From NCBI GenBank assembly GCA_021818875.1, contig JAKASW010000001.1, positions 1 through 53,782 on the forward strand: a stretch of DNA of 53,782 bases. Reading direction: 5' to 3'. Shown here one piece after another: positions 8,107-53,782 of this stretch. This DNA is from Bacteroidota bacterium (GTDB taxonomy: Bacteria; Bacteroidota; Ignavibacteria; Kryptoniales; JAKASW01). Each line of letters opens with the position of its first letter. The first letter of the stretch is position 1. The notes under the pieces were generated by a model. That model saw only the letters and a list, made by a program, of their open reading frames with translations, had not been told where the DNA came from and made no database searches. The position numbers were made by a program, and so were the translations under genes.

Positions 8107-8109
8107 ACA

Positions 8110-14323: not shown

Positions 14324-14338
14324 AACGAGGATCTCGTC

Positions 14339-15388: not shown

Positions 15389-15439
15389 TTTACTGGCAGA
15401 AATCTAGTATTCACTCACGAAATCTCAGGCAGGTGTGGC

Positions 15440-17443: not shown

Positions 17444-17462
17444 AAATACCCCGGTCTGCCAG

Positions 17463-20440: not shown

Positions 20441-20461
20441 CCCTTCGACGAAAGGAAATAG

Positions 20462-22747: not shown

Positions 22748-22827
22748 GCTCCGCTTTTTTCGTGCAGGCCATACATTCGAAAAAGCACGTGATTTCGTTA
22801 TATCAAAATCGAAAAGGAAAATAGACA

Positions 22828-23811: not shown

Positions 23812-24358
23812 TGAGAGCTCAAAAAGAGTGGTAATTAATTCGCGGCACTGATTATCCTTCCGACTAACGCGTGGAAATGTCCTGCAGGAGCATGGATGCC
23901 TTGAGAAAGGGCGAAGCCATGAGACCGTTTTGGCGATTCAGACATCCTGCTTCCCATCTTATCTGAGAACATGTTGAGTTGGGCGCCGGCTGCAAGCGAG
24001 GCCGCGCCACGGATGCAATTTTGTTCTTGACATTTAGAATCAGTTCTATTAACATTGAAACGGTTCAGATAAATATGAACCGAAAGGCATTAGGGTGCCG
24101 GTTGTGAATGCAGGGAGCCGGACGGTTTTCGCGATCACGATACAGTTGCTCTTTAAGAAAGCAATCGTATGCAGATGCCAGATTCTGCAAGAGCGAATTT
24201 CCGCAATAGTCGTGCATTGACTCCCTTACCAAGTTGGGACTGAAAAGTCTCCTTCCCCTATAGTACCACAAGCTCCAATCGTCATTATCGAGTATTGATG
24301 AGCCGGGGCAACCTTCGGTTGCGCCGCGGCGTAAAGCATTTTGACCTGGGAACTTGAT

Positions 24359-28219: not shown

Positions 28220-28297
28220 GACAATTCAGAAGTCGTTGGCGCATAAGATTTTGTTCTAAACGGTTTTCAGCAGTAACTCAAAAATAGGGAGAGAAAT

Positions 28298-31369: not shown

Positions 31370-31479
31370 ATGGTCAATCACCCGTGCGGGGGTCAACGAG
31401 CAGTCTTCTTGACTCTCAAAAGGCTTCAAATTGTGGACGTTTTAGTTGGATCAAGAAACCATAAATAAGGAGAAGTAAA

Positions 31480-33351: not shown

Positions 33352-33595
33352 ATCTTGAGTAACGGAGCGAGGTCATGGCTGCGCGCCGAAACTCACGTTG
33401 ATGAATTCCCGGCGTGAAGGCACTTGAACCTCGCCTGTTGTACCATCAAAGGAGGTGGTTGAGTTCATTATATGTAAGTCCGCTCAGGGTTCTGCTTTGT
33501 AGTTAAAACCTATGAAATAGTTAACGGAGTTTTTTCCTGGTTCATTCCAGTCTATACAGTAATTGCTCCGATTAACAAAAATCTTTGGAGGAATC

Positions 33596-36500: not shown

Positions 36501-37291
36501 TGTGGACTTACTCTACCGGCGGGCAGACACTTATGGTGGACACCACGAGCCACGATACATCGTGGACGGTTACATCAGGCCTGACTAACCGCGTTTACTA
36601 CTACTGGCAGGTACAGTGCTACAACCAGGGCGGAGCGAGTGCATTCAGCGCTGTCGACTCGTTCACAAGCGTCATCGAAGTTGCTGCAGCGCCGATCGCA
36701 GTTTCGCCGAAGGGTGTTGCGGTCGCTCAGCCGAGGCAGACAGTCTTCGCATGGAATCCTGCAGTCAATGCACAGTGGTACCATCTGCAAATCGCTACGG
36801 CGAGCGACTTCTCGGGTGATGTGGTTGTCGACCAGACGATGATATCTGACACGTCAGTGCAGATAGCCGACACACTGGCACCAACTACGACTTACTATTA
36901 TCGCCTGAGCTCGATCAACCTGGGCGGTGAGGGCGCATTCTCAAGTCCAACCGTGTTCAAGACAGGATCTGGTGTGACCGGGATCTTCGGTGTGCCGGGT
37001 ACCCTTCCAAAGGAGTTTGCACTCCACCAGAACTACCCGAATCCGTTCAACCCTTCGACGACGATCAGCTATGATCTGCCGAAGGCCGCATTTGTAGAAG
37101 TCGTGATCTACGATGTTCTCGGACGGCAGGTCGCAAGGTTGGTGGATGGGATACAACAGCCCAGCACGCAAACTGTGGTCTGGAACCCTGAAGGCTTAAG
37201 CAGTGGCGTTTATTTCTGCCGCATCTCGGCACGAAGCATGGATGGGTCCAAGAACTTCAATGCTGTAAAGAAACTAATGTACATGAAATAA
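33596..37291 (+). CDS. Giant FG-GAP/VCBS-repeat + ASPIC/UnbV (CRTAC1-like) protein with CBM-like insertion, four Fn3-like modules and T9SS CTD
   Basis: From ORF 33563; the likely start is ATG 33596 (GGAGG RBS), giving signal peptide MKTFLRSLTAGVFLLLLGLSASMAQ. FG-GAP/VCBS repeats: DVNKDGNLDVF, DFNGDGVPDLF, DANNDGYQDLL, DLNNDGIPDLF, DYNNDGLADIY and DYNGDGFLDIF. The ASPIC/UnbV block is NHWIGFIPIGTGHNMSAIGAKFTVWVGGKQQARWIKAEGGSGGMGG...VNVQWPDGTSHTY. Four xYYWRVxxxN modules follow, then a CTD tail. Confidence 0.75.
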   Translation: MKTFLRSLTAGVFLLLLGLSASMAQEVTYSPGPAITPSSGAANGGFAWADVNKDGNLDVFIPSNNMIYNSTTSFAQDASATVNISLNTNSVGLLLADFNGDGVPDLFTTNGGTPSSGLFYNQNGVFIPPTGTGDLGTAGVTGEVFEGAAAAPIDHSNYLSICWPGTFTGIAGNASAAGGGGMWLLKGGPNGFTNIGRRAGGGASSSNLTMDFESQNVGYAFPTIGWSATDIQSTVALDPTGGTNHVLKNVVHNYNAAPVLEFTLPSGKTLADYTSFMFKGDWAQGDVGYKNIVVEAYQSMPTAQAFNNSANQIGSWNRAAMGSNGWEIDTVNITNTRSYSGTVFIAFGINCAGTGNVGAAGDTTIWYADDITLVSPTGGSISSAAIDTSLSFESWDVRFLDANNDGYQDLLMPSFRCGFARIDTGSSGARKGTVLFLNDGTGKFIIPTAASLGRPIYSIGAGGAVSTTGDTGIVVDDTVRHFTAIGSQWGDLNNDGIPDLFLNALGGTDNLDGNGNYVADVILYGKGDGTFTYKWDGVHVVANNGIVQATNQRGIDIGDYNNDGLADIYTSGTFGAQHLYRNNGDGTFTDVAVQDGITAGGQRAGQFVDYNGDGFLDIFMYTGGTSVMQKNAGNSNHWIGFIPIGTGHNMSAIGAKFTVWVGGKQQARWIKAEGGSGGMGGEVRANFGLGASTKIDSVNVQWPDGTSHTYSFGAANNLIAVNKYYTIQEGSVIPSTPTIKRPSWAAGDVALSSTDTLTWNAATTGAGTTTYQVQIASNASFSSIAKAVKGITGTSAIVRLGLSTKYYWRVQAFNNQLSGPYSAIDSFQTNVTPCTTAPTQLKPVNNSTTAPNKPTLVVSYVPTASTYHFQLSDTVAMTRFIVNDSLSDFDTTWVVTQSLTPSKQYYWRVRGYNPAGSSSWSQVDSFTIMYLPATPTLAYPSSNQANVPVNPLTLKWKHEAGDSNYVVKLWTYSTGGQTLMVDTTSHDTSWTVTSGLTNRVYYYWQVQCYNQGGASAFSAVDSFTSVIEVAAAPIAVSPKGVAVAQPRQTVFAWNPAVNAQWYHLQIATASDFSGDVVVDQTMISDTSVQIADTLAPTTTYYYRLSSINLGGEGAFSSPTVFKTGSGVTGIFGVPGTLPKEFALHQNYPNPFNPSTTISYDLPKAAFVEVVIYDVLGRQVARLVDGIQQPSTQTVVWNPEGLSSGVYFCRISARSMDGSKNFNAVKKLMYMK

Positions 37292-37301
37292 TAATTAGCC
37301 G

Positions 37302-37369
37302 GTAGGCGAAGTGACGCCACCTCGCCTACTCCTCTTGCCGAAGGAGATGGAGGGTAAGCCTTCATCTCC
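37302..37369 (+). terminator. Two consecutive hairpins in the 123-nt spacer after the FG-GAP gene
   Basis: The first hairpin pairs GTAGGCGA (37302..37309) with TCGCCTAC (37322..37329). The second pairs GGAGATG (37343..37349) with CATCTCC (37363..37369). There is no clear T-tract, so a terminator function is tentative. Confidence 0.4.
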
Positions 37370-37414
37370 CAGGCAAGTTCCACTAGAACCAAAGGGTGCT
37401 TAGGGTCAGCAAAA

Positions 37415-38974
37415 ATGAGAATTAAAATAATCCATACTCTGCTTCTACTGAGCTTTTGTCTCTGCAGTGTTTCACTAGCACAAAACTTTCCCCTTGTCTA
37501 TGATGTCGAAAACACAGGCGAAAACTGTCTGCAACCTCAGTTTCCTTCTCTCACCCAATTGCCGGTCAACAAGTCATTGCCCGATCCGTTCATGTGGGCT
37601 GACAGTGCGCTCGGACGTATCAAATATTACTCGGATTGGCAGGCACGGCGCGCCGAGATAGGTTATCAGATCCAACATTATGAGATCGGAGTAAAGCCAC
37701 CTCGGCCGGATACGATTTCTGCCAGCTATTCTCAAGACACACTGGTTGTCAATGTTACTGTGAATGGTAGCACTCTTACCATGAGGTCGCATATTACTCT
37801 ACCGTCAGGCACCGGCCCATTCCCGGCAGTGATCGGTATTATGACGCCTACCGGAAGTATCCCCGATAGCATTTTCAGCAATCGCCATATTGCAGAAATT
37901 ACGTATAACATCAATCAGGTAACCACTTACTACAACTTCCAATATACTGATCCATATTTCAGGCTTTACCCTAATCTTAATACAACCAACATCGGACAGT
38001 ACAGCGCATGGGCATGGGGAGTAAGCAGAATAATCGACGGGTTGGAACTGGTACAGGACTCGCTTCCCATCGACTTAAAGCACATAGCAGTTACCGGATG
38101 CTCCTACGCAGGCAAGTTGGCACTATTTGCTGGAGCGTTTGACGAACGCATTGCGCTAACAATTGCCCAGGAGTCGGGCGGCGGCGGTGCAACTTCGTGG
38201 CGTTACTCACATGCCACGGCCGGTACCGGCGTAGAGGAGATAGACAACACGAGTTATGATTGGTTTGCAGATTCGTTGAAGCAATTTGCCGGAGACGAAG
38301 TTTATCGACTGCCGTATGATCACCATGAATTGATGGCGATGGTGGCGCCGCGTGCTTTGTATGTCACCGCGAATCCCGATTATACTTGGCTGTCGAATCC
38401 CTCGTGTCACGTTGCGAGTATCGCTGCCCAGAGAGTTTATGAAGGTCTCCAGATACCGGATAGGTTCGGCTATTCAATTGTTGGTGGACATTCGCATTGT
38501 CAGCTTCCGGATGTCCAGGTGCCTGATATCCAGGCATTTGTTGAGAAGTTTCTTCTCGGTGACTCGACCCAATATACGTATCTTGGAACCAGTCCGTATA
38601 ATATCGACCTTACTCCATGGATTGTGTTGAAGAATCCTAAGCTTGCGGATACGACCACCACGTCCATAGGTGACAGACCCGGAAGTGTGATCAGCGGATT
38701 TAGACTTGAACAAAACTGTCCCAACCCCTTTAATCCGACGACGACGATCAGGTATGGTCTGTCCAAAAAATCCTACGTCCAGCTTTTCATCTACGATGTT
38801 CTTGGACGGCAGGTAGCGAAGCTGGTTGATGGTATTCAACACCCCAGCGAGCAGAGCGTTTCATGGGACGCGTCAGGCTTTAGCAGCGGTGTTTACTTCT
38901 GCCGGATTATTGCTCGCAGTCTCGATGGGTCGACAGATTTCAATGCTGTAAAAAAACTCCTGTACATGAAATAG
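37415..38974 (+). CDS. CE15 glucuronoyl esterase (second copy) with T9SS CTD
   Basis: It is collinear with 237..2372: LVYDVENTGEN, LPVNKSLPDPFMWAD, VTGCSYAGKLALFAGAFDERIALTIAQESGGGG and GGHSHCQLPD. It lacks Fn3 modules. The CTD is QNCPNPFNPTTTI...VYFCRIIARSLDGSTDFNAVKKLLYMK. Confidence 0.88.
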   Translation: MRIKIIHTLLLLSFCLCSVSLAQNFPLVYDVENTGENCLQPQFPSLTQLPVNKSLPDPFMWADSALGRIKYYSDWQARRAEIGYQIQHYEIGVKPPRPDTISASYSQDTLVVNVTVNGSTLTMRSHITLPSGTGPFPAVIGIMTPTGSIPDSIFSNRHIAEITYNINQVTTYYNFQYTDPYFRLYPNLNTTNIGQYSAWAWGVSRIIDGLELVQDSLPIDLKHIAVTGCSYAGKLALFAGAFDERIALTIAQESGGGGATSWRYSHATAGTGVEEIDNTSYDWFADSLKQFAGDEVYRLPYDHHELMAMVAPRALYVTANPDYTWLSNPSCHVASIAAQRVYEGLQIPDRFGYSIVGGHSHCQLPDVQVPDIQAFVEKFLLGDSTQYTYLGTSPYNIDLTPWIVLKNPKLADTTTTSIGDRPGSVISGFRLEQNCPNPFNPTTTIRYGLSKKSYVQLFIYDVLGRQVAKLVDGIQHPSEQSVSWDASGFSSGVYFCRIIARSLDGSTDFNAVKKLLYMK

Positions 38975-38995
38975 TTGTCACTTCTCCTTCTTGGT

Positions 38996-39040
38996 GCATC
39001 CCGATTTGGCATTTGGCCGACTCGGGATGCTTCTTCTTCC
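38996..39040 (+). terminator. Rho-independent terminator-like hairpin
   Basis: A perfect 9-bp stem pairs GCATCCCGA (38996..39004) with TCGGGATGC (39022..39030). It is followed by the T-rich TTCTTCTTCC. Confidence 0.6.
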
Positions 39041-39205
39041 CACGAATTCCTATGAGAGTGAGATCCATCTGTAACTTGAAGATTCTTTTACAACTCGTCA
39101 CTCAAAGAGATGGCGAACCGGATGCAAATGACAAGGCATCCATCGAATACGCCGCGAGCCACGATGCGCGTACCGCGAGTGTGCTTTACGACTAAGGAGA
39201 CTACC

Positions 39206-40813
39206 GTGACACCCGGATCATTGAAGTTTCAAGGACAACAGACCGTGGCGATTCGTCTAATGCTTTTTGCAGTGCTTCTCGTCCCTTCAGAATCTTTTTG
39301 CCAATTAGCACTCGGTAGAAGCAAATTCCTTGGGAACGCAGTTACCTGGGGCTATCGCATACCGTCGAGCTATCCTGCATATTGGAATCAGGTCACTCCT
39401 GGAAATGACGGGAAATGGGGGAGCGTCGAAAACAACCGGGGTGTCTTCAACTGGACGGGGCTCGACGATCTGTACAACTTCGCGGTGACAAACGGTATTC
39501 CATTTAAGGATCACAATCTGATCTGGGGTCAGCAGCAGCCGAGCTGGATTTCTACTCTTGATTCAGCCAGTCAGAGAGCGGCAATCAAAGCGTGGATCGA
39601 TTCCGTAGGACACCGGTATCCGCAGATGGATTTTATCGACGTCGTCAACGAGCCTCTGCATGCTCCACCTGACGGTAGAAACGGGACTGCGAACTACATT
39701 CGCGCACTCGGTGGATCCGGAGCGACAGGTTGGGATTGGATCGTCACTGTCTTCACATGGGCAAGACATGCCTGCGCACCGGGAGTAAAGCTTCTTATCA
39801 ACGACTACAACATCCTGCATGACAATGGAGTTACGAACACTTATATCGCCCTCATCGATACTTTGAAGGTCAGGGGACTGATCGATGGAATCGGGATCCA
39901 GGGACACTATTTTGAATTCAAGAGTGCTGCGGGTTTGTCCCCTGTCTATTCTTATCCGGTGAGCACCCTGAAATCCAATCTTGATAGACTGGCCTCGGCC
40001 ACAGGATTGCCAATCTATATTTCTGAGTTTGAAATAGACGAAGCCAAGGACAGCACCCAATTGGTGAATTACAAGACGTACTTTTCTCTTTTCTGGGAAG
40101 ACCCTGCAGTGAAGGGCATGACGTTGTGGGGTTACATCCAGGGCGATACGTGGAAAGCAAACGGTTACCTGCTTCGTACAGACGGGACCGAACGACCGGC
40201 ACTTCAATGGCTGCGTACCTATCTCGCCAAGTACTTGCTCCAGCCCGTAGTGGTTTCGCCGGCCGGCACAACAGGCAGTCCGCGCAATCCTGTTCTCCTA
40301 TGGCATTCCTCAATTGCTGCATCGTCCTACCACTTGCAGGTTGGGACTGACGAATTGGTCTCGACAGTAGTCCTAGACTCCACCGTGTCGGATACCCTGC
40401 TGCAACTACCGAGTTTAAGTGCGAACACGCGATACTACTGGCACGTTGCTGCATTGAACCCCAGCGACACCGGCGACTTTTCTGCTCCCGTGAGTTTTAC
40501 TACCGGGGATTCGATTGCTGCGGATGTAAATGAGCACGAAGAAATGCCTGCAGAATTTAGGCTATGGCAGAATTATCCGAATCCATTCAATCCAATGAGT
40601 AATATCGAATTTCAAATTCCGAATACCGGATTTGTGTCGTTGAAAGTATATGATGCATTGGGTAGGGAAGTAAAGACGTTGGTAAATGGATCTGAACAGG
40701 CGGGAAGTCATCAAGTCACATTCGACGCGACCGCGTTTCCGAGCGGGGTCTATTTCTATCGGCTCAGCACTGGAAACATGACTGCCATAATGAAGATGAT
40801 TGTACTCAAGTAA
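39206..40813 (+). CDS. GH10 endo-1,4-beta-xylanase (third copy) with Fn3-like module and T9SS CTD
   Basis: From ORF 39110. The best start is GTG 39206, 5 nt after TAAGGAGA, which gives a hydrophobic signal ...AIRLMLFAVLLVPSESFCQ. GH10 motifs: FLGNAV, YWNQVTPGNDGKWG, VVNEPLH and YISEFEI. The Fn3-like module contains NTRYYWHVAALN. The tail is QNYPNPFNPMSNI...VYFYRLSTG...MKMIVLK. Confidence 0.88.
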   Translation: MTPGSLKFQGQQTVAIRLMLFAVLLVPSESFCQLALGRSKFLGNAVTWGYRIPSSYPAYWNQVTPGNDGKWGSVENNRGVFNWTGLDDLYNFAVTNGIPFKDHNLIWGQQQPSWISTLDSASQRAAIKAWIDSVGHRYPQMDFIDVVNEPLHAPPDGRNGTANYIRALGGSGATGWDWIVTVFTWARHACAPGVKLLINDYNILHDNGVTNTYIALIDTLKVRGLIDGIGIQGHYFEFKSAAGLSPVYSYPVSTLKSNLDRLASATGLPIYISEFEIDEAKDSTQLVNYKTYFSLFWEDPAVKGMTLWGYIQGDTWKANGYLLRTDGTERPALQWLRTYLAKYLLQPVVVSPAGTTGSPRNPVLLWHSSIAASSYHLQVGTDELVSTVVLDSTVSDTLLQLPSLSANTRYYWHVAALNPSDTGDFSAPVSFTTGDSIAADVNEHEEMPAEFRLWQNYPNPFNPMSNIEFQIPNTGFVSLKVYDALGREVKTLVNGSEQAGSHQVTFDATAFPSGVYFYRLSTGNMTAIMKMIVLK

Positions 40814-40834
40814 TCGTTCTCCTACTTGGTTCAT

Positions 40835-40878
40835 CCCGACCCGGCCATCGTGTGTCGGGTCGGGGTGTTTTGTTTTTG
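40835..40878 (+). terminator. Rho-independent terminator
   Basis: A perfect 9-bp stem pairs CCCGACCCG (40835..40843) with CGGGTCGGG (40856..40864). It is followed by GTGTTTTGTTTTTGT. Confidence 0.7.
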
Positions 40879-41004
40879 TCAAAGCCAAGTTGAACATCGT
40901 TGTCAGGGGAAGGTAAGAGGTTGGAGGGTTTCTTCAGAGCTATGAGGAGAATGTTGTTGTTGAAGAGGCCACAAGCTGAAGTCATATACATCACGAGGAA
41001 TCAT

Positions 41005-42222
41005 ATGAAATACTTTTCAATGGTGCTGAGCCTTGTGATAGCGATATCTGGTTGCTCCAGAAAAAGTATTGTTACGGCTCCGCCCGATACGAATGGTTCG
41101 ACGACGATCTATCTGGATAACACCCAACAAATCATCAGAGGCTTTGGCGCTGCCAACATTGTCGGCTGGCGGCCGGATATGACACCCTCAGAAATACAGA
41201 CGGCCTTTGGAACTGGTCCGGGCGAGCTCGGCTTTTCGATAATGCGCCTTCGAATTCCACCCGACTCGACTCAGTTCGCTATCAACTTCCCCTCTGCAAA
41301 AGCGGCCTCCGCGATGGGAGTGACCATCATCGCAACTCCGTGGACGCCTCCCCGTTGGATGAAAAGCAACAAGAGTAATATTGGAGGAATACTTAACGCA
41401 TCTTCCTACGCCGCGTACGCCGGCTTTCTGAAATCGTTTGCCGACACAATGTTCAACAACGGAGCGCCTTTGTATGCCATTTCTGTTCAGAACGAACCTG
41501 ATGCCAACGTAACTTACGAGTCATGTTCCTGGTCGCCCGCGGGTTTTTTCAACTTTATGAAGAATAACGCTCCTTCTGTCGGCGTCCCTGTCTTTTTGCC
41601 GGAGTCTATGAGATTCGATCACGCATATTCAGACTCCGCTCTGAGCGATCCAGCCGTTGCCGCAAACGTAGCGTTTATCGGCGGCCATATCTACGGCACC
41701 AGTCCCTCCCTATATCCGCGCGCCATTGCCATGGGTAAGGAGGTGTGGATGACGGAGTACCTTGACCTGGATACGAGCTGGGCCGCTGTCGTGGGGACAG
41801 CTAAGAGCACCAACGATTGTATGAACGTCCAGATGAGCGCATACCTATGGTGGTACATCGTCCGCTATTATGGTCCAATTGGCGAGGACGGCGTCGTCAC
41901 GAAAAGAGGCTATGTCATGTCTCAGTTTGCCAGGTTCATTCGCCCCGGGTTCCATCGCGTCTCCACTTCGGCACAATCTCAAGCGAACATTTGCGTGACT
42001 GCTTACAAAAACGGATCGAAAGTGGTCATTGTTGCGCTGAATACCGGCTCATCGTCGGTTAATCAGAGATTTGTCATCCCGAATTCAGCAGTCGTTTCGT
42101 TCACAGATTACGTCACATCGGTTGATAAGAACTGTACACAAGGAACGACTGTCCAGGTTAACGGCGGAATCTTCATTGCGACTTTGGCCCCATCGAGCGT
42201 GACTACATTTGTCTCAAATTAG
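41005..42222 (+). CDS. GH30 subfamily-8-like glucuronoxylanase, lipoprotein (second copy)
   Basis: From ORF 40900. The likely start is ATG 41005, which gives the lipobox MKYFSMVLSLVIAISGCS. GH30 motifs: IRGFGAAN, ATPWTPPRWMK, SVQNEPD and WMTEY. WWYIVRYYGPIGEDGVVTKRGY closely resembles the uronate-recognising WWYIRRSYGP loop of XynC-type enzymes. Confidence 0.85.
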   Translation: MKYFSMVLSLVIAISGCSRKSIVTAPPDTNGSTTIYLDNTQQIIRGFGAANIVGWRPDMTPSEIQTAFGTGPGELGFSIMRLRIPPDSTQFAINFPSAKAASAMGVTIIATPWTPPRWMKSNKSNIGGILNASSYAAYAGFLKSFADTMFNNGAPLYAISVQNEPDANVTYESCSWSPAGFFNFMKNNAPSVGVPVFLPESMRFDHAYSDSALSDPAVAANVAFIGGHIYGTSPSLYPRAIAMGKEVWMTEYLDLDTSWAAVVGTAKSTNDCMNVQMSAYLWWYIVRYYGPIGEDGVVTKRGYVMSQFARFIRPGFHRVSTSAQSQANICVTAYKNGSKVVIVALNTGSSSVNQRFVIPNSAVVSFTDYVTSVDKNCTQGTTVQVNGGIFIATLAPSSVTTFVSN

Positions 42223-42267: not shown

Positions 42268-44139
42268 ATGAAAAATCCTTTTCGGTTTTCTGTAGTGATG
42301 GCTGTCTTCTATATTTTCCTCGGCTTCAAAACGGCCCCTGCCCAGCCTTCGGGCGGCCCATACGGTCCAGTCAGACAAACTTACCAATTGCCCAAAGTCG
42401 CCGGCTCGATATATTACGTCGCTGTCGATGGTGACTCAACACAATCGGGTGAATCATTTAGTAGACCCACAACTATAGAAGCCGCAGTGGAAAGAGTGAA
42501 GACAGGCGATGCCATCGTAATGCGCGGCGGGACGTACCGAACCGGAAATCTTGTGTTGAATCAAGGGATTACAATTCAGCCGTATGGTGATGAGCATCCC
42601 GTACTCAAGGGGACTCTTGTCGTATCGATTTGGCGGAACCTTGGAAACGGACTGTGGGTCACAAAGTGGAACCACCTTTTCCCGCAAGAGCCCGCGGACT
42701 GGTGGCAGCGCGATGTGTTTGGAAAGCAAACACCGCTATGCCGTTTCAACAATGATATGGTATTTGTTGACGGTAAGTTTCTTCAGTCGGTGATGTGGGA
42801 AGGCGAGGTTGACAGCAGCTCGTATTACATCGATTACGATGACAGCCTTATCTACATCGGTAGCGACCCGACAAATCATCTGGTTGAAATCACCGCTTTC
42901 GATGCAGCGTTGATCAGGACTACACGCGAGTGCCACGGCAAGAAGTCTGACCACGAAGGATATAGCATCCGCGGCATCACATTCACACAATACGCTTACC
43001 GTGCGCTTGAGGTTGAAGGCACCGAGCCGGAAGGTGTTGCTGACGAATCGAAATTTGGGAAAGATGTCGTAGGTACGACACTGGATAATTGTACAATCTC
43101 GTTTTGCTCGCGCGTCGCCGCATATTTGCGCGGAGACAGTCTCACGATCCGTCACTGCAAAATCAGCGACACGAGCACCGAAGGAATCTACACCATTGCT
43201 TCGAATGACGTATTGCTCGATGGCAATATGTTCATGCGGAACAACATCGAAAACATCGGCGGGTGCTATCCTGCCGCAGTGAAGATATTCAATCAGAGTC
43301 ATAGGGTAATATGCCGTGACAACCTGATAACCGATCTTCCGAATTCGAACGGTGTGTGGTACGATGTTGGCGAGGCGGATGGAGTGTTCGTCAATAACTG
43401 GGTGCAGAACGTGGGTCATGTCGGGAAAACGACTCCGACCGACCAGCTCTGGCCGAGCGATAATGGCTTCTTCTTCGAGATATCAAAGGGAGTCATAGTT
43501 GCAGGAAATGTCTTCGTCAACTGCGACCACGGCATGATGATTCTCAACAGCTCAAATGCACAAATTTATCACAATACTTTTGTGAACAGCATGGCATGTA
43601 TCGGGCGGAATGGACGAACGGCGGCCGGGGATCGGTTCGGTTGGCACTCAACCACCGGACCCGATCTTGAAAAACGCGAGGGTCATGCCTTCGTCGACAA
43701 TCTACTTTTCGGAGCTGCGGACTTTATTAGACCGCTTTTCTTTGTCTGGCAACCCGGTTCGCTGTGTGGGAAGCTGAACGATTCGCAACTGGCTCAGCTC
43801 AATTACAACGTCTACGTCCGGGAGGCAGCAGACTCGCCGTATCCGATGATTCTCTGGAGTCCTGTGAAGAATGAGAAGTGCCAGATTGGCGTTGATTCGC
43901 TGGAGAGTCTGCGAGCGCTCTACCCGGGATTCGAGACCGGCGGTGAATGCTATTCCCACTATGACAAACCCGTCTTCAAGAGTTTGGAGCTGGGTAACTT
44001 TCAACTGCTGCCTGAGTTTGACGGCGCAAGACTCGGGATCACACCTCCAATAGAAATCCGAAGGATCATCGGCCGTCCCGATCCGGAGAAACAATATGTC
44101 GGTGCCTATCCGTCAGTCATGCGACTGCAGAAGCCTTAA
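42268..44139 (+). CDS. Secreted right-handed parallel beta-helix repeat protein, unknown function (candidate novel glycan-active enzyme)
   Basis: Signal peptide MKNPFRFSVVMAVFYIFLGFKTAPAQ. The N-terminal IYYVAVDGDSTQSGESFSRPTTIEAAVERVKTGDAIVMRGGTY is typical of pectate-lyase-fold proteins. PbH1-like turns are present: LDNCTISFCSRVAAY, IRHCKISDTSTEGIY, LDGNMFMRNNI and VAGNVFVNCDHGMMI. It has no CTD and no lipobox. Confidence 0.6.
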   Translation: MKNPFRFSVVMAVFYIFLGFKTAPAQPSGGPYGPVRQTYQLPKVAGSIYYVAVDGDSTQSGESFSRPTTIEAAVERVKTGDAIVMRGGTYRTGNLVLNQGITIQPYGDEHPVLKGTLVVSIWRNLGNGLWVTKWNHLFPQEPADWWQRDVFGKQTPLCRFNNDMVFVDGKFLQSVMWEGEVDSSSYYIDYDDSLIYIGSDPTNHLVEITAFDAALIRTTRECHGKKSDHEGYSIRGITFTQYAYRALEVEGTEPEGVADESKFGKDVVGTTLDNCTISFCSRVAAYLRGDSLTIRHCKISDTSTEGIYTIASNDVLLDGNMFMRNNIENIGGCYPAAVKIFNQSHRVICRDNLITDLPNSNGVWYDVGEADGVFVNNWVQNVGHVGKTTPTDQLWPSDNGFFFEISKGVIVAGNVFVNCDHGMMILNSSNAQIYHNTFVNSMACIGRNGRTAAGDRFGWHSTTGPDLEKREGHAFVDNLLFGAADFIRPLFFVWQPGSLCGKLNDSQLAQLNYNVYVREAADSPYPMILWSPVKNEKCQIGVDSLESLRALYPGFETGGECYSHYDKPVFKSLELGNFQLLPEFDGARLGITPPIEIRRIIGRPDPEKQYVGAYPSVMRLQKP

Positions 44140-44302: not shown

Positions 44303-44971
44303 GTGAATGAAATTGTTGAGCAGATTGGAGTATGCATAGAACGTGGTAAAGTGAACCAATCTTCTCCCTATCCGAATGATATGAAAGGTCAGGTCGGAGC
44401 AGATGAGCTTGCGAAAGAGGCTCTTGGCGCAGGGGTCGGTCCCGATGAAATACTGTCGGCCTGCAATGACGGCATGAAGCGTATCGGTGAGAGGTTCAGC
44501 CGCAGCGAGGTGTTTGTCCCGGAGCTTCTGATGGCGGCCAAAGCGATGAACGCTGTCATGGCACACCTCAAGCCCTACTTTCAAACCGGAGCGGTCAAGG
44601 CCAAGGGGAAGTTGGTGATCGGGACTGTTGCCGGGGACCTCCATGACATCGGCAAAAACCTTGTTGCCATGGTTGTCGAAGGCAACGGGTGGGAAGTCGT
44701 TGATCTTGGAGTCGATGTAAAGGCGCAGAAGTTCATCGATGCTATCAACAAGAATCCGGGCTGCGTCGTCGGCTTGAGTGCCCTTCTCACTACGACAATG
44801 GCCAACATGATGAAGATAGTAAAGGACATCAAATCGCAGCTACCCTCGACACGGGTGATTGTCGGAGGCGCTCCGCTGACGCAGAAGGCGGCCGACGAAA
44901 TGGGTGCGGATGGCTACGCGCCGAATCCACAGGGCGCGGTCGCATTTTTGAACTCGGCAGGTCAAGTATGA
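44303..44971 (+). CDS. Corrinoid (cobalamin-binding) protein, MtaC/MtbC/MetH-B12-domain type
   Basis: GTG start. The N-terminal helical cap (B12-binding_2-like) is followed by a Rossmann domain. That domain carries the canonical DxHxxG motif in GTVAGDLHDIGKNLV, then GLSALLTTTM and VIVGGAPL. Confidence 0.9.
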   Translation: MNEIVEQIGVCIERGKVNQSSPYPNDMKGQVGADELAKEALGAGVGPDEILSACNDGMKRIGERFSRSEVFVPELLMAAKAMNAVMAHLKPYFQTGAVKAKGKLVIGTVAGDLHDIGKNLVAMVVEGNGWEVVDLGVDVKAQKFIDAINKNPGCVVGLSALLTTTMANMMKIVKDIKSQLPSTRVIVGGAPLTQKAADEMGADGYAPNPQGAVAFLNSAGQV

Positions 44972-45852
44972 GACTTCTGACTGACGCTTTGAAAGAAGGG
45001 AAAGTGTTGGTTTCCGATGGGGCGTGGGGGACCATGTTGCAAGGGCGGGGTCTTGAGCCGGGAGACTGCCCCGAGCTGTGGAATGTCACTCATCGTGACG
45101 ACGTCTTCGCCATTGCCAGAGCTTATGTCGATGCCGGGGCGGACATGGTACTCACGAACAGCTTCGGGGGATCGCCGATTAAGCTTTCTCACTATAACTT
45201 GCAGGATCGTGCCGCAGAGCTTAACGAAGCCGCAGCCAGAATTTCGCGGGAAGCGGCAGGAGCCGCTCATTTTGTGCTCGGTTCCATTGGCCCCACAGGT
45301 GAAATACTTATGACGGCACAGGTAACACAAGAAAGCGTCTATGATGACTTCAGACTACAGGCGGAGGCCCTGAAGCGCGGCGGAGTAGATGCGATCGTCG
45401 TCGAGACGATGTCTGCGATCGATGAAGCGGTGCTTGCGATTCGCGCTGCTAAGGAGTCGACGGGACTTGAAGTTGTCTGCACATTCACATTTGACAGGTC
45501 GCCCAACGGTGAGTATCGGACTATGATGGGCGTTTCACCTGAAGAGATGGTTCGTGCAGTCAAGGGGGCGGGCGCTTCGATTATCGGCGCAAACTGCGGC
45601 AACGGCTTCGACCAGATGGTAGAAGTCGTCAAAGAAATCCGCCGTGCCGATCCGGCAACTCCGATTTTGGTCCATGCCAATGCCGGGTTGCCTGTTCTGA
45701 AAGATGGCAGGACAATTTATCTCGAAACACCAGCAGACATCATTCCAAAAGTACGTGAGCTTGCGGACTGTGGAGCAAACATTATCGGTGGGTGTTGTGG
45801 AACGACGCCTGAACATATCCGTGTGATCGCAGAGGAATTGAAGAGATATTGA
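44968..45852 (+). CDS. Homocysteine S-methyltransferase-domain protein (MetH Hcy-binding module as a standalone protein)
   Basis: The ATG overlaps the upstream stop (ATGA at 44968..44971). Motifs: VSDGAWGTMLQ, AGADMVLTNSFG and VVETM. The Zn-Cys motifs are IGANCGNG and IIGGCCGTTPEHI. Confidence 0.85.
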   Translation: MRLLTDALKEGKVLVSDGAWGTMLQGRGLEPGDCPELWNVTHRDDVFAIARAYVDAGADMVLTNSFGGSPIKLSHYNLQDRAAELNEAAARISREAAGAAHFVLGSIGPTGEILMTAQVTQESVYDDFRLQAEALKRGGVDAIVVETMSAIDEAVLAIRAAKESTGLEVVCTFTFDRSPNGEYRTMMGVSPEEMVRAVKGAGASIIGANCGNGFDQMVEVVKEIRRADPATPILVHANAGLPVLKDGRTIYLETPADIIPKVRELADCGANIIGGCCGTTPEHIRVIAEELKRY

Positions 45853-46613
45853 ATCTGCTCGAAACTGCGATCGAGGGCAACGTTTTTGAAGTTCACATCA
45901 AGTACGATGACCTTCGAATTTCCCGCCGCGAAGTTGAACTCACTCTCGGTTACATGGATGCCGAGATTCCGCCGCATTTTTCGGGGATGATCGACGATGC
46001 TCTCCTGGAGCTGAAGGGTCGCTGTGAAATAAAGGCAGGGTATAGACTCACCGAAGTTGCTCGCCCCCCCGGTCGTTACGACGGACTCCTTGTCGGCGGA
46101 AATTTTCTCAGGATGGACAAGATAGTCACGAGCCAACTCAAGAAATCTGAGAGAGCAGCGGTATTCGTGTGCACGATCGGTTCATCGATGGAAACCTGGG
46201 CCAGAGGATTGATGAAAGATGGTGATCCTGCGATGGGGTACATTGCAGACACGACTGCTTCCGTTGCAGCCGAGGCGGTGACGAATCTTTTACACGATCA
46301 TATCGGGGAGCGGATGTTGTCTCAAGGAATGAGGATTACAAACAGGTACAGTCCGGGCTACTGTAACTGGTCCGTGTCGGAGCAGCATCTTCTTTTCTCT
46401 CTACTGCCGAAAGATTTCTGCGGGGTGACCCTCTCGGAGTCTGCTCTGATGTCGCCGATCAAGTCGGTCAGCGGTGTCATCGGAGTCGGCACTCTTGTCC
46501 GGAGAAAGGATTACATTTGCGATAGGTGCGGCGTCAAAGATTGCACATACAGATCAAAAAGACCAGCGGCAACAAATCAAAAGACGAGCCACATAGAAAC
46601 ATCGGGCACATAG
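45849..46613 (+). CDS. Methionine-synthase (MetH) activation/reactivation-domain-like protein
   Basis: The TTG start overlaps the upstream stop (TTGA at 45849..45852). RYSPGYCNWSVSEQHLLFSLL...LSESALMSPIKSVSGVIGVG parallels the MetH AdoMet-binding domain consensus (PGY...W...Q..LF.LL ... M.P..SVSG). Confidence 0.7.
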   Translation: MNLLETAIEGNVFEVHIKYDDLRISRREVELTLGYMDAEIPPHFSGMIDDALLELKGRCEIKAGYRLTEVARPPGRYDGLLVGGNFLRMDKIVTSQLKKSERAAVFVCTIGSSMETWARGLMKDGDPAMGYIADTTASVAAEAVTNLLHDHIGERMLSQGMRITNRYSPGYCNWSVSEQHLLFSLLPKDFCGVTLSESALMSPIKSVSGVIGVGTLVRRKDYICDRCGVKDCTYRSKRPAATNQKTSHIETSGT

Positions 46614-46666: not shown

Positions 46667-47695
46667 ATGACAGACCATCAATGGGATTTATTGAAAAAGA
46701 CAATCAAGGGTGAAGTCTCCGATCCTCTTCCAATTGCTTTCATTATCGACAGTCCGTGGCTGCCGAACTGGTATGGCGTCAAGATCCTGGACTATTTCTC
46801 CAGCGATGAGTTATGGCTGAAAGCTAATCTGAAGGCGATCACAGATTTTCCGGATGTCATGTTCCTGCCGGGATTCTGGTCGGAGTTTGGAATGTGCACT
46901 GAGCCTTCGGCATTTGGAGCCCGCGGTACGTTCCCACCCAACGAGTTTCCGTTCGCTCACAAAGTGATTCGCTCGGCAGATGATGTTGACGAGTTACCGA
47001 CGCCCGATCCGAGGATTGATGGTCTGCTGCCGTTTATGTTAAACCGGCTGAAGCTTGCTCAGCCGAAAATCGAGGCGGCAGGCCATAAGATTCGATTCGC
47101 TGTTGCGCGCGGGCCGCTCAATATTGCCAGCTACCTGATGGGCTCGACGGAATTCCTGACAATGATGATGATGCAGCCGGACAAAGCCGAATTGCTGATC
47201 AGGAAAATTACCGATTACCTAAAAGAGTGGCTCCATCTCCAGATGGAGACTTTTCCTACGATCGATGGTATCTTTCTTCTCGACGATATAATCGGCTTCA
47301 TGGGTGCCGAGCAATTTCGTCAATTCGGTCTCCCGTATTTTAAGGAGCTGTTCGACGCGAACGTTTCGGTGAGGTTTCTTCATAATGATGCACCTTGTCG
47401 CGAATCTGCCCCTTTCCTTCCTGAGATGGGAGTCAACCTGTTCAACATGGGCTTTGAGGTGTCATTGAATGAGTTGAGGCAGTTGACGCGAAACAAAGTC
47501 GCACTGGTGGGAAATCTTCCGCCACGTGATGTGCTTGCGAGCGGAACTCCGGAAGTCGTTGCCGCAAAGACACGCGAACTTGTCGGATCTCTTAAAGATA
47601 AGTCCATGGTGATAATGTCATGCGGTGGAGGTATGCCGCCGGGAGTAAGCACCGAGAACATAAAATCATTCTTGGAAGCCGTCAGGAAACATTGA
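46667..47695 (+). CDS. URO-D (uroporphyrinogen decarboxylase) superfamily methyltransferase, MtaA/CmuA/O-demethylase-MT-like, copy 1
   Basis: From ORF 46646 (TTG); the first ATG is at 46667. The length is about 340 aa and the layout is URO-D-like (P..W..RQAGR-type N-terminus replaced by PIAFIIDSPWLPNWYG; GIFLLDD; MSCGGGMPPG). It lacks the H-x-C zinc motif (LHNDAPC instead). Assignment rests on fold-level resemblance and context. Confidence 0.6.
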   Translation: MTDHQWDLLKKTIKGEVSDPLPIAFIIDSPWLPNWYGVKILDYFSSDELWLKANLKAITDFPDVMFLPGFWSEFGMCTEPSAFGARGTFPPNEFPFAHKVIRSADDVDELPTPDPRIDGLLPFMLNRLKLAQPKIEAAGHKIRFAVARGPLNIASYLMGSTEFLTMMMMQPDKAELLIRKITDYLKEWLHLQMETFPTIDGIFLLDDIIGFMGAEQFRQFGLPYFKELFDANVSVRFLHNDAPCRESAPFLPEMGVNLFNMGFEVSLNELRQLTRNKVALVGNLPPRDVLASGTPEVVAAKTRELVGSLKDKSMVIMSCGGGMPPGVSTENIKSFLEAVRKH

Positions 47696-47734: not shown

Positions 47735-48754
47735 GTGACAAAGCCATTTCTTGACGCGGTTCGCGGATCTTACGCGCAGCGTCGCCGCCTGGTGGCTCCG
47801 CTGATGGGTTTCCCGGGTGTTAAGCTTGCAGGCACCACTGTAAAACTTGCCCAGCAGAACTATGCCGAGCATTTCAGAGTACTTAAAGCATTGGTCGAAA
47901 CGTTTAACCCGGATGTGATTTTTCCCCTGATGGACTTGTCGGTGGAAGCGAATGCACTTGGCCGCTACACAATTTTTCCGAAGGAAGATTCGGCTACGGT
48001 TGTGAAAGGGGAATTCACTCGTGAGGATCTTGAAATGGCCGGGAAGATCGATATTTGCTCCGACGCGCGGCTGCTTGGATACGTCGAGACGATGAGATTA
48101 ATGACATCGCATCTGCCTGGCGGGATTATTAGAGGTGCTTACGTTACGGGACCATACACGCTTGCTGCACTTCTGATGGGGGCGGACGAAGCGGCGATTG
48201 CGACCGTGATGAACTGCGAGATGCTCCATGAAATATGCGACATGACTGTCGCGAAAATTGCTCAATACGTTCAACTGCTGGTGAAAGCCGGTGCGCAGCT
48301 GATATGCGTTCTCGAACCGAGCGCAGTTATGCTTGGGCCAGCCCAGTTTGAAGAATATTCGGGTTCGTATGTCCGAAAGATATCCTCGGAATATTCACGT
48401 TCGGACATTGCGTTCGTTTATCATGTCTGCGGAAATTCAATGCATCTTATTGAGGTCATGGCAAGCTCAGCCGTCGATGCGATTAGTCTCGACTCTACTG
48501 AAGCGGGTGTTGATTTGCTGCGGGCAGCGACAAAAGTGCAAAACGAAATCGTATTTATTGGCAACCTGAGTCCGACCGGATCAATCTTAGGCGGACATCC
48601 TGGAGAAGTCGAAAGAGAAACATCTGCGCTTCTTGACGAAATGGAAAGCTGTCCAAACTTTGTCCTGAGCACCGGCTGCGATCTGCCTCAGGAGACACCG
48701 CACGAGAACATCGAAGCTTTCATGAACGCAGGGCGCAGCTATATGATTAATTAA
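47735..48754 (+). CDS. URO-D superfamily methylcobamide methyltransferase, MtaA/MtbA-like, copy 2 (retains HxC...C zinc motif)
   Basis: GTG start. VYHVCGNSMHLIEVMASSAVDAISLD matches the MtaA-type 'HxCG ... D..S.D' block. A second Cys lies in LSTGCDLPQETPHENI. It is about 339 aa. Confidence 0.65.
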   Translation: MTKPFLDAVRGSYAQRRRLVAPLMGFPGVKLAGTTVKLAQQNYAEHFRVLKALVETFNPDVIFPLMDLSVEANALGRYTIFPKEDSATVVKGEFTREDLEMAGKIDICSDARLLGYVETMRLMTSHLPGGIIRGAYVTGPYTLAALLMGADEAAIATVMNCEMLHEICDMTVAKIAQYVQLLVKAGAQLICVLEPSAVMLGPAQFEEYSGSYVRKISSEYSRSDIAFVYHVCGNSMHLIEVMASSAVDAISLDSTEAGVDLLRAATKVQNEIVFIGNLSPTGSILGGHPGEVERETSALLDEMESCPNFVLSTGCDLPQETPHENIEAFMNAGRSYMIN

Positions 48755-48784: not shown

Positions 48785-50092
48785 ATGATGAAGACCGGAA
48801 ATACAAGCTCCGTTAATTTACAGCAGGATTCCGACTTTGAATCGAAAGTCGGCTACTATAGGTGGATCGTCTGCGGCCTCCTGTTTTTTGCCACGACGAT
48901 TAACTATGTGGACAGGGCAGTTCTGGGAATTCTGGCTCCGACTCTTCAGAAGCAGATGGGCTGGAACCAGATCGATTACGGCTACATAGTCACGGCTTTC
49001 ACCGGCGCATACGCCATCGGAATGTTGTTCGTCGGGAGATTTATAGATAAGGTGGGGACCAGAATCGGGTATGCTGTGTCGATGATAGTCTGGAGCATAG
49101 CGGCCATGACACACGCTTTAGCCGCCAACGTATTCGAATTCGGAGCCGCAAGATTCGCATTGGGGCTTGGAGAGTCCGGGAACTTTCCCGCAGCCATAAA
49201 GGGAACTGCAGAATGGTTCCCGAAGAAGGAGAGAGCTTACGCGACCGGGCTCTTTAATTCCGGTGCAAACATAGGCTCAATAGTTGCACCTCTCATCGTG
49301 CCGTGGATAACTCTGACCTGGAGCTGGCGCGAGGCGTTCATATTCACCGGACTGCTCGGTGTCATTTCCCTCGCTTTATGGTTGTGGTTTTTCGAAATCC
49401 CAGAAAGGCAGAAACGTGTGAGCAAAGCCGAGATCGCTTACATCCAGAGCGATCCCCCGGAACCGCCTGCGGAGAAAGTACCATGGCTCAAGCTTCTTAA
49501 GTACAGGCAATCGTGGGCTTTTGTCGAGAGCAAGTTCCTGACAGATCCGATATGGTGGTTCTACCTTTACTGGCTGCCAAATTTCCTGAATTCCCGGTAT
49601 CACCTTAACTTAGCTGAGATTGGTCTTCCTTTGATCGTCATTTACACGATGACGACGGTAGGCAGCATTGGTGGAGGCTGGATGTCCGGAGCACTGATAA
49701 AAAGGGGATGGAGCGTCAACCGTGGAAGAAAGGCGACGATGCTATTGAGTGCGGTGCTTATCGTTCCGATAGTGTTTGCTTCGATAGTGCCCGAGTGGTG
49801 GGCGGTATTCCTGATCGGACTTGCCGCTGCTTCGCACCAGAGCTGGTCGGCGAATTTGTTCACTACGACTTCCGACATGTTTCCGAAGAAAGCTGTTGCG
49901 TCCGTCACCGGCCTCGGCGGAATGGCGGGCGCAATAGGCGGAATGCTTATCGCTACCGCAGCAGGGTTCATACTCCAGTTCACCGGAAGCTACATGGCGC
50001 TATTCATAATTGCGGGTACAGTCTATTTGCTTGCACTGCTGGTGTTCCATCTTCTCGTGCCGGAGATAAAAGAGTTCAAGATGGAAGGATAG
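48785..50092 (+). CDS. MFS transporter, anion:cation symporter (ACS) family, hexuronate transporter ExuT-like
   Basis: AGGAGG RBS. YYRWIVCGLLFFATTINYVDRAVLGILAPTLQKQMGWNQIDYGYIVTAFTGAYAIGMLFVGRFIDKVGTR is very similar in pattern to ExuT/ACS N-termini. The protein has about 12 hydrophobic segments. Confidence 0.75.
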   Translation: MMKTGNTSSVNLQQDSDFESKVGYYRWIVCGLLFFATTINYVDRAVLGILAPTLQKQMGWNQIDYGYIVTAFTGAYAIGMLFVGRFIDKVGTRIGYAVSMIVWSIAAMTHALAANVFEFGAARFALGLGESGNFPAAIKGTAEWFPKKERAYATGLFNSGANIGSIVAPLIVPWITLTWSWREAFIFTGLLGVISLALWLWFFEIPERQKRVSKAEIAYIQSDPPEPPAEKVPWLKLLKYRQSWAFVESKFLTDPIWWFYLYWLPNFLNSRYHLNLAEIGLPLIVIYTMTTVGSIGGGWMSGALIKRGWSVNRGRKATMLLSAVLIVPIVFASIVPEWWAVFLIGLAAASHQSWSANLFTTTSDMFPKKAVASVTGLGGMAGAIGGMLIATAAGFILQFTGSYMALFIIAGTVYLLALLVFHLLVPEIKEFKMEG

Positions 50093-53518: not shown

Positions 53519-53782
53519 TCATACGACTAGCGATCTCCTTATCCCCATCTCCAATCCCCGCAGCTCAGCCAGACCGCGCATTCTACCGAAGAGCGAATAG
53601 CCCGGGTAAATCCCTTTTCTGTCCATATCAGGGAGCATCAGATGTCCATGGTCCGGCCGCATCGGCATTCGCGCGTTCTCCAAACCTTGCTCTGTTCGCC
53701 GCTTCTGTTCCATGATGAGCGGCTTCATCACTCCGTACATATCCACATCGCCGTCCAGTTGATAACTCTCTACGAACCCGCC
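53519..53782 (-). CDS. uxuA: Mannonate dehydratase, C-terminal fragment (gene continues beyond the window edge)
   Basis: The frame is open to the window edge. ...[49 protein letters not shown] matches the highly conserved UxuA C-terminus (RPDHGHQMLDD....PGYS.IGRLKGLAE.RG.E.AI). Confidence 0.7.

Follow-up and report, generated by a model that had tools for sequence, protein, structure and literature searches.

This study concerns six genes on the + strand, at 44303-50092, of a 53,782-nucleotide stretch of contig JAKASW010000001.1 (hereafter, the window) from a Bacteroidota bacterium of the Kryptoniales (assembly GCA_021818875.1). They encode a corrinoid protein, a homocysteine methyltransferase (HcyMT), a reactivation protein (React), two members of the uroporphyrinogen decarboxylase (UroD) superfamily (UROD1 and UROD2) and a transporter resembling ExuT. 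The genes are as follows (aa, amino acids):

44303..44971, + strand: corrinoid (B12-binding) protein, 222 aa; Pfam B12-binding_2 and B12-binding
44968..45852, + strand: HcyMT, a stand-alone zinc-type homocysteine S-methyltransferase, 294 aa; PF02574
45849..46613, + strand: React, an S-adenosylmethionine (AdoMet) reactivation protein of the TM0269/MetH activation-domain type, 254 aa; PF02965, partial
46667..47695, + strand: UROD1, a UroD-superfamily protein, 342 aa; PF01208, 5.5e-39
47735..48754, + strand: UROD2, an MtaA-like zinc methyltransferase, 339 aa; PF01208, 2e-50
48785..50092, + strand: ExuT-like transporter of the major facilitator superfamily (MFS), ACS (sugar-acid) family, 435 aa; TIGR00893

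The first three genes overlap by 4 bases, at ATGA 44968-44971 and TTGA 45849-45852, and a GAGGAA box precedes the overlapping React start at 45849. From a comparison of homologs, the start of UROD1 was set at ATG 46667 (MTDHQW), not at 46646, which leaves 53 nt between React and UROD1. Because of the 4-base overlaps and this short gap, the genes likely form one operon, and because toxin-antitoxin genes come after the MFS gene, we placed its end at 50092. Pfam matched URO-D on 46646-47695 and 47735-48754, and MFS_1 on 48785-50092. Sites found in a scan for sigma-70 promoters and terminators were no more numerous than in shuffled sequence. An earlier, sequence-only reading had described three modules of methionine synthase (MetH) as separate, overlapping open reading frames (ORFs) co-transcribed with two UroD-type methyltransferases; the Pfam matches, the overlaps and the intact catalytic motifs described below bear out both claims.

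The corrinoid protein comprises B12-binding_2 (PF02607) and B12-binding (PF02310) domains (7.8e-27) and keeps the His-on motif DxHxxG as DLHDIG. Among structures in the PDB it matched 1Y80 of Moorella (160 bits), 7XCN and 4JGI, the last being the O-demethylase corrinoid protein of Desulfitobacterium hafniense, and the B12 domain of MetH at 104 bits. Judged by these sequence matches, the protein is nearer to corrinoid proteins that partner methyltransferases in methylotrophy and O-demethylation than to MetH, so that its earlier description as a MetH module stands for the domains and the motif but not for the closest kinship. Its best NCBIfam model was the MtgC-type NF047996 (170 bits; cutoff, 370), with TIGR02370 also matched; all scores of the operon proteins against corrinoid methyltransfer models in NCBIfam were below cutoff.

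HcyMT matched PF02574 (S-methyl_trans) over its full length (8.3e-71) and is homologous both to the homocysteine module of MetH and to MtgE/'Bhmt'. In an alignment with Thermotoga maritima MetH (1Q7M; E, 4.5e-46), the three zinc cysteines (NCGN, GGCCGT) and the ET glutamate are kept, and the best NCBIfam model was PRK07534 (258.6 bits, below the cutoff of 338). The protein has thousands of stand-alone homologs of 294 aa, the top 120 of which are 66-77% identical, and it is 42% identical to a homolog from the Rhodobacterales. When genome and metagenome collections were scanned with HcyMT, the matches listed were mostly distant MetH or MTHFR-fusion proteins, with few close relatives.

React matched PF02965 (Met_synt_B12) partially, over profile positions 110-247 of 273 (6.3e-11), and its RYSPGY (RxxxGY) motif aligns with RPAPGY of Escherichia coli MetH (residues 1046-1181; hhalign probability, 84.5%), leaving the N-terminal part of the E. 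coli activation domain unmatched. A React profile matched the stand-alone T. maritima protein TM0269 (1J6R) over its full length (2.4e-13). Near the C terminus (residues 222-237; window 46512-46559) lies the motif Y-x-C-(D/N)-x-C-x3-(D/E)-C-T-Y-R, kept in every aligned sequence (alignments of 9 and 10), with C224, C227 and C232 invariant; it may hold a metal or Fe-S centre through which electrons enter directly. C172 and C191 are likewise conserved, and the E. coli MetH activation domain is unmatched over the C-terminal cysteine motif.

In what setting does this operon lie? It closes a 44-kb glucuronoxylan locus that runs from 96 to 44139 on the same strand throughout. Besides the operon, the window contains:

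96..42222, + strand: glucuronoxylan/arabinoxylan degradation locus; Pfam scans, with glycoside hydrolase (GH) family 35 assigned by NCBIfam
42268..44139, + strand: beta-helix protein (Pel9A-like/NosD-like), 623 aa; Pfam Beta_helix and NosD
53519..53782, - strand: truncated 3' end of uxuA, for mannonate dehydratase of glucuronate catabolism, at the window edge; phmmer match, and PF03786 at 18552-19751 of L001 (the same contig), which corresponds to the window from 53519 onward

The hydrolases of the locus are four GH10, two GH30-like and two GH43 enzymes and one each of GH51, GH3, GH27 and GH35; its esterases are two glucuronoyl esterases of carbohydrate esterase (CE) family 15, a CE2, a CE4 and two SASA-type enzymes. 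A SusC-like TonB-dependent receptor and an MFS_2 transporter are also encoded, and many of the proteins bear type IX secretion system (T9SS) sorting domains. Directly after the SusC-like gene, at 31480-33351 (+), lies the gene for a 623-aa protein whose sole domain match is a T9SS sorting tail and which occupies the slot where Bacteroidota would have a SusD-like gene. Between the operon and uxuA, 50135-52836 holds a toxin-antitoxin-like run (a nucleotidyltransferase/HEPN pair, a HicB-like gene and a PIN-domain gene).

We compared 13 xylan/uronate loci with UROD1, the window included, using contexts obtained by exact-protein look-ups, which for L174-L176 began from UROD1 (L numbers designate loci). 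In nine besides the window, the corrinoid protein, HcyMT, React and UROD1 occur in the same order, at 65-85% identity (hereafter, the cassette), with these surroundings:

L005: GH115, GH43 and GH10 upstream; esterase and GH3 downstream
L007: GH115 and GH43 upstream; ExuT-like MFS transporter downstream
L168: GH10, GH30 and beta-helix protein upstream; GH43, GH88, DUF362 and URO-D downstream
L169: GH8 and GH115 upstream; GH97 and GH88 downstream
L170: LacI, GH115 and GH43 upstream; aldo-keto reductase and esterase downstream
L171: GH67, GH10, LacI, GH115 and GH43 upstream; esterase and GH97 downstream
L172: GH115, CE15, GH43, UROD2, UxuA and mannonate oxidoreductase upstream; esterase downstream
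L173: cassette followed by DUF362, UROD2, MFS transporter and UxuA
L178: GH115 upstream; esterase downstream

The cassette lies inside a xylan/uronate locus in all nine other genomes of the clade defined by 65-77% HcyMT identity (10/10 with the window), usually directly downstream of a GH115 alpha-glucuronidase and in many cases close to UxuA/UxuB. UROD1 is present in 13/13 loci, with GH115 or GH67 near it in 8/13, UxuA in 6/13, and CE15 in the window (two copies) and L172; the D-mannonate oxidoreductase beside UxuA in L172 passes the NCBIfam cutoff (376 against 281 bits). In L174-L176, the neighbourhood of a purU-UROD1 pair contains GH67, GH43, GH10, a beta-helix protein, UxuA, 2-keto-3-deoxy-6-phosphogluconate (KDPG) aldolase and PfkB kinase, the last two being among the UROD1 neighbours of L175, and 6 kb beyond the pair in L176 are a corrinoid protein, a UroD-type protein, React and HcyMT. 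The cassette appears to be widespread in xylan-degrading Kryptoniota, Ignavibacteriota, Calditrichota and Bacteroidota.

The beta-helix gene immediately upstream of the operon has counterparts in L168 (7382-9238), L175 (6953-8809) and L176 (5537-7393), so that, in four genomes, a protein of 618-623 aa is encoded directly 5' of either the cassette or purU-UROD1; a role as a lyase or hydrolase on (4-O-methyl-)glucuronate side chains is conceivable. Two further observations concern these loci. L168 and L169 encode GH88 unsaturated glucuronyl hydrolases, and next to UROD1 or UROD2 in L168 (18955-20337), L173 (12810-14249), L174 (11387-12853) and L175 (13710-15089) a DUF362 protein recurs that is secreted and bears a T9SS sorting domain.

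The operon transporter scored far better against TIGR00893 (1.1e-75) than against the aromatic-acid symporter model (1.3e-29) in NCBIfam, and it is 32% identical to E. coli ExuT over 407 aa (E, 1e-61). Its orthologs lie directly after the cassette in L007 and after UROD2 in L173, and we predict that it imports (4-O-methyl-)glucuronate.

This context bears on the possibility that the operon is a split housekeeping methionine synthase whose methyl-tetrahydrofolate module is encoded elsewhere, the UroD-type genes being unrelated neighbours. Split systems do exist, as in Phaeobacter (PMC5764234) and in T. maritima with its separate activation protein (1J6R); moreover, HcyMT of L090 (approximately 56% identity) is directly followed by a pterin protein, and in L170 as in L178 approximately 7 kb of sequence contains all four MetH-type modules. 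Nevertheless, in the close clade the cassette is always accompanied by UROD1 inside a xylan locus, and the overlaps and the 53-nt gap tie UROD1 to it. No cobalamin or SAM riboswitch precedes the operon, either in an Rfam scan of the whole window or in a permissive scan of the operon 5' region; together with the LacI, XylR or hybrid-sensor regulators of related loci, this is more in keeping with a catabolic regulon than with a methionine one. In L095, a full-length MetH is encoded next door to a 55% identical HcyMT homolog, so stand-alone parts are not necessarily a cell's only methionine synthase. Because the xylan-locus context is invariant, we rejected this explanation as the principal one and consider it very improbable. 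The suggestion of the sequence-only reading that the methyl donor is other than methyl-tetrahydrofolate gains support from the same synteny.

More distant stand-alone HcyMT proteins (55-57% identity) occur with other UroD-type proteins, one of them, in L010, after an alpha/beta hydrolase. UroD-type methyltransferases are linked to HcyMT more often than to any other acceptor-side methyltransferase, other sugar contexts included, and given these varied contexts the module may serve other methylated compounds. In L089, the order at 6670-10891 is GH29 alpha-L-fucosidase, UroD-type protein, corrinoid protein and HcyMT, the last 57% identical to that of the window; this suggests that similar cassettes exist for further methylated sugars, methyl-fucose for instance. 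In L008 (7403-11875), from a metagenome-assembled genome (MAG) of the Prolixibacteraceae, a corrinoid protein, a 539-aa fusion of UroD-type and thioredoxin-like parts, an HcyMT (59%) and a CobW-family GTPase are encoded.

The two UroD-superfamily proteins are only 21% identical to each other. UROD2 aligns with MtaA (4AY7 in the PDB, 6.6e-13) at the zinc ligands H-V-C and the GC cysteine, and scored 104 bits against the NCBIfam MtaA/CmuA model (cutoff, 235) and 76 bits against hemE (cutoff, 303). Its orthologs, with 57-62% identity, are present in L172 and L173, and one was also called at the end of L168; L005, L007 and L169-L171 have none in the +/-10 kb covered. UROD2 would be a second methyltransferase that the system can do without, serving either another methyl donor or a thiol acceptor. 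UROD1 forms a small, distinct clade (133 representative clusters at E <= 1e-30), with homologs of 75-86% identity in Kryptoniota, Melioribacter, Ignavibacteria, Bacteroidota and one MAG labelled Acidoferrales. The contig has Candidatus Kryptobacter and Kryptoniota MAGs as its closest named relatives. H239 and C319 are invariant in UROD1, and C244 is nearly so. A UroD-fold protein beside a corrinoid protein is the donor-half architecture of known corrinoid demethylases; we therefore read UROD1, the constant and locus-specific partner, as a predicted substrate:corrinoid methyltransferase (MT I) for 4-O-methyl-D-glucuronate (MeGlcA).

Why MeGlcA? Enzymes of GH115, GH67 and CE15 release (4-O-methyl-)glucuronic acid from xylan, whereas UxuB, UxuA, 2-keto-3-deoxygluconate (KDG) kinase and an aldolase consume glucuronate. 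The presence of GH115/GH67, CE15, UxuA/UxuB and the ExuT-like transporter makes MeGlcA, a side sugar of glucuronoxylan, the likely donor. On balance, and with modest confidence, we favour the reading that the operon specifies an oxygen-independent, cobalamin-dependent MeGlcA demethylase. Its substrate, direction of transfer, acceptors and reactivation chemistry, and with them each step below, are read from homology and context, on top of the gene content, motifs and cross-genome synteny observed. Secreted xylanases and CE15 esterases, together with an alpha-glucuronidase, which in related loci is GH115 or GH67, would free MeGlcA, and the ExuT-like transporter would take it up. UROD1, through its variant His/Cys/Cys metal site, would pass the O-methyl group on to the corrinoid protein in its Co(I) state, forming CH3-Co(III) and yielding glucuronate for the UxaC/UxuB/UxuA pathway. 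HcyMT would pass the methyl group from CH3-Co(III) to homocysteine, giving methionine and Co(I), and React would repair oxidised Co(II) by reductive methylation with AdoMet, replacing the ATP-dependent reductive activator of corrinoid enzymes (RACE). The corrinoid protein would probably be a hub with a second exit to tetrahydrofolate (THF), via a stand-alone pterin methyltransferase, followed by oxidation to formate. A non-folate methyl donor that feeds a MetH-like machine, as suggested earlier from the sequence, is likely, but that suggestion had missed the likely identity of the donor and the xylan context. Methanol was considered as the main donor and rejected, because no MtaB-type gene is present.

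Several points weigh against this proposal. First, in UROD1 the H-x-C...C site of MtaA is replaced by H239-x4-C244 plus C319, and by sequence and fold the protein is equidistant from true UroD/HemE and MtaA. Second, UROD1 of L174 and of L175 lacks a corrinoid gene within 10 kb. Third, aryl methyl ethers are easier to cleave than their alkyl counterparts. Fourth, in L005, L170, L171, L172, L175 and L178, UROD1 is followed by a PF00756 esterase that may be a feruloyl esterase. Fifth, Pfam scans of the window ORFs found no GH115 or GH67 alpha-glucuronidase; the MeGlcA-releasing enzyme of this genome would be encoded elsewhere or be one of the unassigned proteins of the window. Sixth, neither the 53.8-kb window nor the approximately 2 kb beyond it that L001 covers yielded a pterin methyltransferase, which the flux estimate given below calls for.

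The first two points would also suit a UROD1 that is a decarboxylase or some other uronate enzyme, located beside the corrinoid protein without sharing a reaction with it; sequence and profile searches of the PDB with UROD1 likewise yielded true UroD enzymes only. In an AlphaFold model (pLDDT 80.5), UROD1 matched the UroD and MtaA folds equally, with TM scores of 0.70-0.74 (about 0.73), so that the fold does not separate a decarboxylase from a methyltransferase. However, a corrinoid protein is adjacent to UROD1 or less than 7 kb away in 11/13 loci, the N-terminal Arg-rich motif of UroD is missing from UROD1 by our own reading of the sequence, and its NCBIfam score is slightly higher for MtaA/CmuA (TIGR01463, 76 bits; cutoff, 235) than for hemE (TIGR01464, 65 bits; cutoff, 303). 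The PurU neighbour in L174-L176 implies one-carbon (C1) chemistry. We find a UROD1 that is not a methyltransferase barely credible.

The esterase raises another possibility, namely that the donor is a methoxylated aromatic compound from xylan-lignin complexes (ferulate, sinapate or lignin fragments), in which case the operon would encode a classical aryl O-demethylase whose acceptor and activator are unusual. Lignin-carbohydrate esters are substrates of CE15 enzymes, and the corrinoid protein is similar to the O-demethylase-type proteins of Moorella and D. hafniense. In addition, aryl methyl ethers, thiols and halomethanes are the only known substrates of UroD-type MT I enzymes (PMC10418091). 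On the other hand, the transporter is ExuT/DgoT-like and not aromatic-acid-like, the tightest neighbours are GH115 and the UxuA/UxuB/KDG genes, and an aldo-keto reductase after UROD1 in three loci suggests a reducing sugar. The window itself lacks a PF00756 esterase, and no aromatic catabolic genes were seen. An aromatic donor is therefore distinctly unlikely, and we retain MeGlcA as the favoured substrate.

Where do the methyl groups go? The sequence-only reading had proposed that they pass straight to homocysteine, that the pterin-binding module is missing and that no RACE-type activator is present. The two absences hold for the window: Pfam found no PF00809 domain in its + strand ORFs of at least 150 aa, tblastn with pterin seeds from E. 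coli, L170 and L090 gave a best E value of 0.5, and Pfam scans of the window ORFs found no family match to a RACE-type activator (COG3894), the activator here being MetH-like. Nor were genes for pterin-binding, RACE, PurU, methylenetetrahydrofolate reductase (MTHFR) or formyltetrahydrofolate synthetase (FTHFS) proteins found in the window or in approximately 2 kb of the contig beyond it. Transfer to homocysteine by the operon-encoded HcyMT remains the predicted route, but that it is the sole exit is doubtful in view of the THF genes of sister loci.

THF-C1 genes lie in or beside 5/13 loci. In L170 and L178, an operon of FTHFS, Pterin_bind, DUF5981 and MTHFR genes is directly beside the cassette, in L178 with glycoside hydrolase genes on both flanks, and the pterin protein of L170 belongs to a widespread, conserved family of 290 aa. 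In L174-L176, a bona fide PurU gene (381-389 bits; cutoff, 286) is directly upstream of UROD1. At least seven further contigs apparently carry both a pterin gene and UROD1 or HcyMT, since contigs of identical length appear in both match lists. The DUF5981 protein (152 aa; L170 15981-16439, - strand; L178 10898-11356), encoded between the pterin methyltransferase and MTHFR, had no NCBIfam match and may be an accessory subunit of MTHFR.

These linked genes point to a second corrinoid exit to THF and then to formate. By our own rough estimate, methyl groups from MeGlcA would amount to more than 10 times the methionine demand, which makes homocysteine unlikely as the sole sink. Could homocysteine nevertheless be the only acceptor in this organism, with demethylation stoichiometrically coupled to methionine synthesis and no role for THF? 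HcyMT is the only acceptor-side methyltransferase of the operon, it is consistently linked to UroD-type methyltransferases and corrinoid proteins, also in L008, L010, L089 and L176, and no pterin gene accompanies it in the window or the adjoining sequence. Against this stand the sister loci, the excess of methyl supply and the precedent of Ruegeria and Phaeobacter, in which the system has a pterin subunit that can be unlinked (PMC12478193, PMC5764234). We regard an exclusive homocysteine route as unlikely. An exit to THF is likely in the cassette family and, by analogy with those two genera, may be unlinked in this genome.

How does the proposed MeGlcA demethylase compare with known systems? 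One of its closest analogues is MtgBCDE of Ruegeria pomeroyi, in which one corrinoid core was shown genetically to serve both glycine betaine demethylation and methionine synthesis (PMC12478193). Both systems have a stand-alone corrinoid protein and homocysteine methyltransferase (MtgE, formerly 'Bhmt'), which form a hub for demethylation and methionine in Ruegeria and would do so here, and the corresponding window proteins have the MtgC and PRK07534 models as their best, though below-cutoff, matches. In contrast, the donor enzyme MtgB belongs to the MttB family (PF06253), the donor is glycine betaine, the activator is RamA-like and a stand-alone pterin methyltransferase, MtgD, is present. The operon has PF01208 UroD-superfamily proteins and no MttB, probably a methylated sugar acid as donor, an activator like the MetH activation domain with no RamA-like gene, and no pterin subunit in its locus; its carriers are bacteria of the FCB (Fibrobacterota-Chlorobiota-Bacteroidota) group with T9SS xylan loci. 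The split MetH of Phaeobacter inhibens has an unlinked pterin subunit (PMC5764234).

With the aryl O-demethylases (OdmABCD/Vdm of Acetobacterium dehalogenans, Mtv of Moorella, that of D. hafniense and Mto of Methermicoccus), the operon shares a UroD-superfamily protein, here a predicted MT I by family and fold, a small corrinoid protein and, as proposed, passage of the methyl group via CH3-Co(III). OdmB and VdmB, UroD-type MT I enzymes of such systems (cited in PMC10418091), are a precedent for our reading of UROD1. The classical systems use a pterin-binding MT II, which delivers the methyl group to THF or tetrahydromethanopterin, and an ATP-dependent RACE, whereas the operon has HcyMT and an AdoMet-type activator; their substrates are aryl methyl ethers, whereas the context of the operon points to a carbohydrate methyl ether. 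MetH, including T. maritima 1Q7M with the separate TM0269 (1J6R), shares the Cys3-zinc homocysteine barrel, the DxHxxG B12 domain and the RxxxGY fold. It differs in that the operon modules are all separate polypeptides, lack a pterin module in the locus, include a B12 protein nearer to methylotrophic corrinoid proteins and sit in a polysaccharide-utilisation locus with UroD-type methyltransferases.

In the chloromethane pathway of Methylobacterium, CmuA/CmuB occur with metF-folD-purU, so that purU is linked as it is in L174-L176. There too, a UroD-like methyltransferase domain loads the corrinoid and the methyl group is oxidised through THF, but CmuA is a methyltransferase-corrinoid fusion with a halomethane donor, and homocysteine methyltransferase and MetH-type activator are absent. 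A cytochrome P450 of marine Bacteroidetes, also encoded in a polysaccharide-utilisation locus, demethylates 6-O-methyl-D-galactose (PMC6292453). Like the proposed enzyme, it is a sugar O-demethylase that unblocks methylated-sugar catabolism; however, it is an oxygen-dependent monooxygenase releasing formaldehyde, unrelated in fold, cofactor and chemistry. This P450 was the sole sugar O-demethylase found in our literature search, in which no corrinoid-dependent demethylase for MeGlcA or another methylated sugar was described.

The operon thus departs from MetH (pterin module), from the classical O-demethylases (MT II and RACE) and from MtgBCDE (MttB-type enzyme and RamA activator). Its novelty would lie in a corrinoid methyltransferase hub with a new combination of components and, probably, a new class of substrate. 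We hold the chances to be about even that UROD1 and its corrinoid partner constitute the first oxygen-independent carbohydrate O-demethylase, a MeGlcA:corrinoid methyltransferase from which methyl groups of hemicellulose would enter methionine directly by way of HcyMT and also the THF C1 pool.

MeGlcA decorates approximately every tenth xylose of hardwood xylan and hence represents a large pool of methyl groups. The 4-O-methyl ether blocks entry into the glucuronate pathway and must first be removed, and no route for this demethylation in anaerobes appears to be known. Because the proteins concerned are four small, conserved and easily expressed ones, the question is directly testable. If our proposal is correct, it would supply a missing step in the breakdown of hemicellulose by anaerobes, add carbohydrates to the aryl ethers, amines and thiols on which corrinoid methyltransferases act, and provide a second independent case, after MtgBCDE, of methionine synthase parts serving as a catabolic demethylation hub. 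It would also explain a B12 requirement of fibre degraders and offer a biocatalyst for demethylating aldouronates, and sister cassettes, such as that beside the GH29 fucosidase, might act likewise on other methylated sugars.

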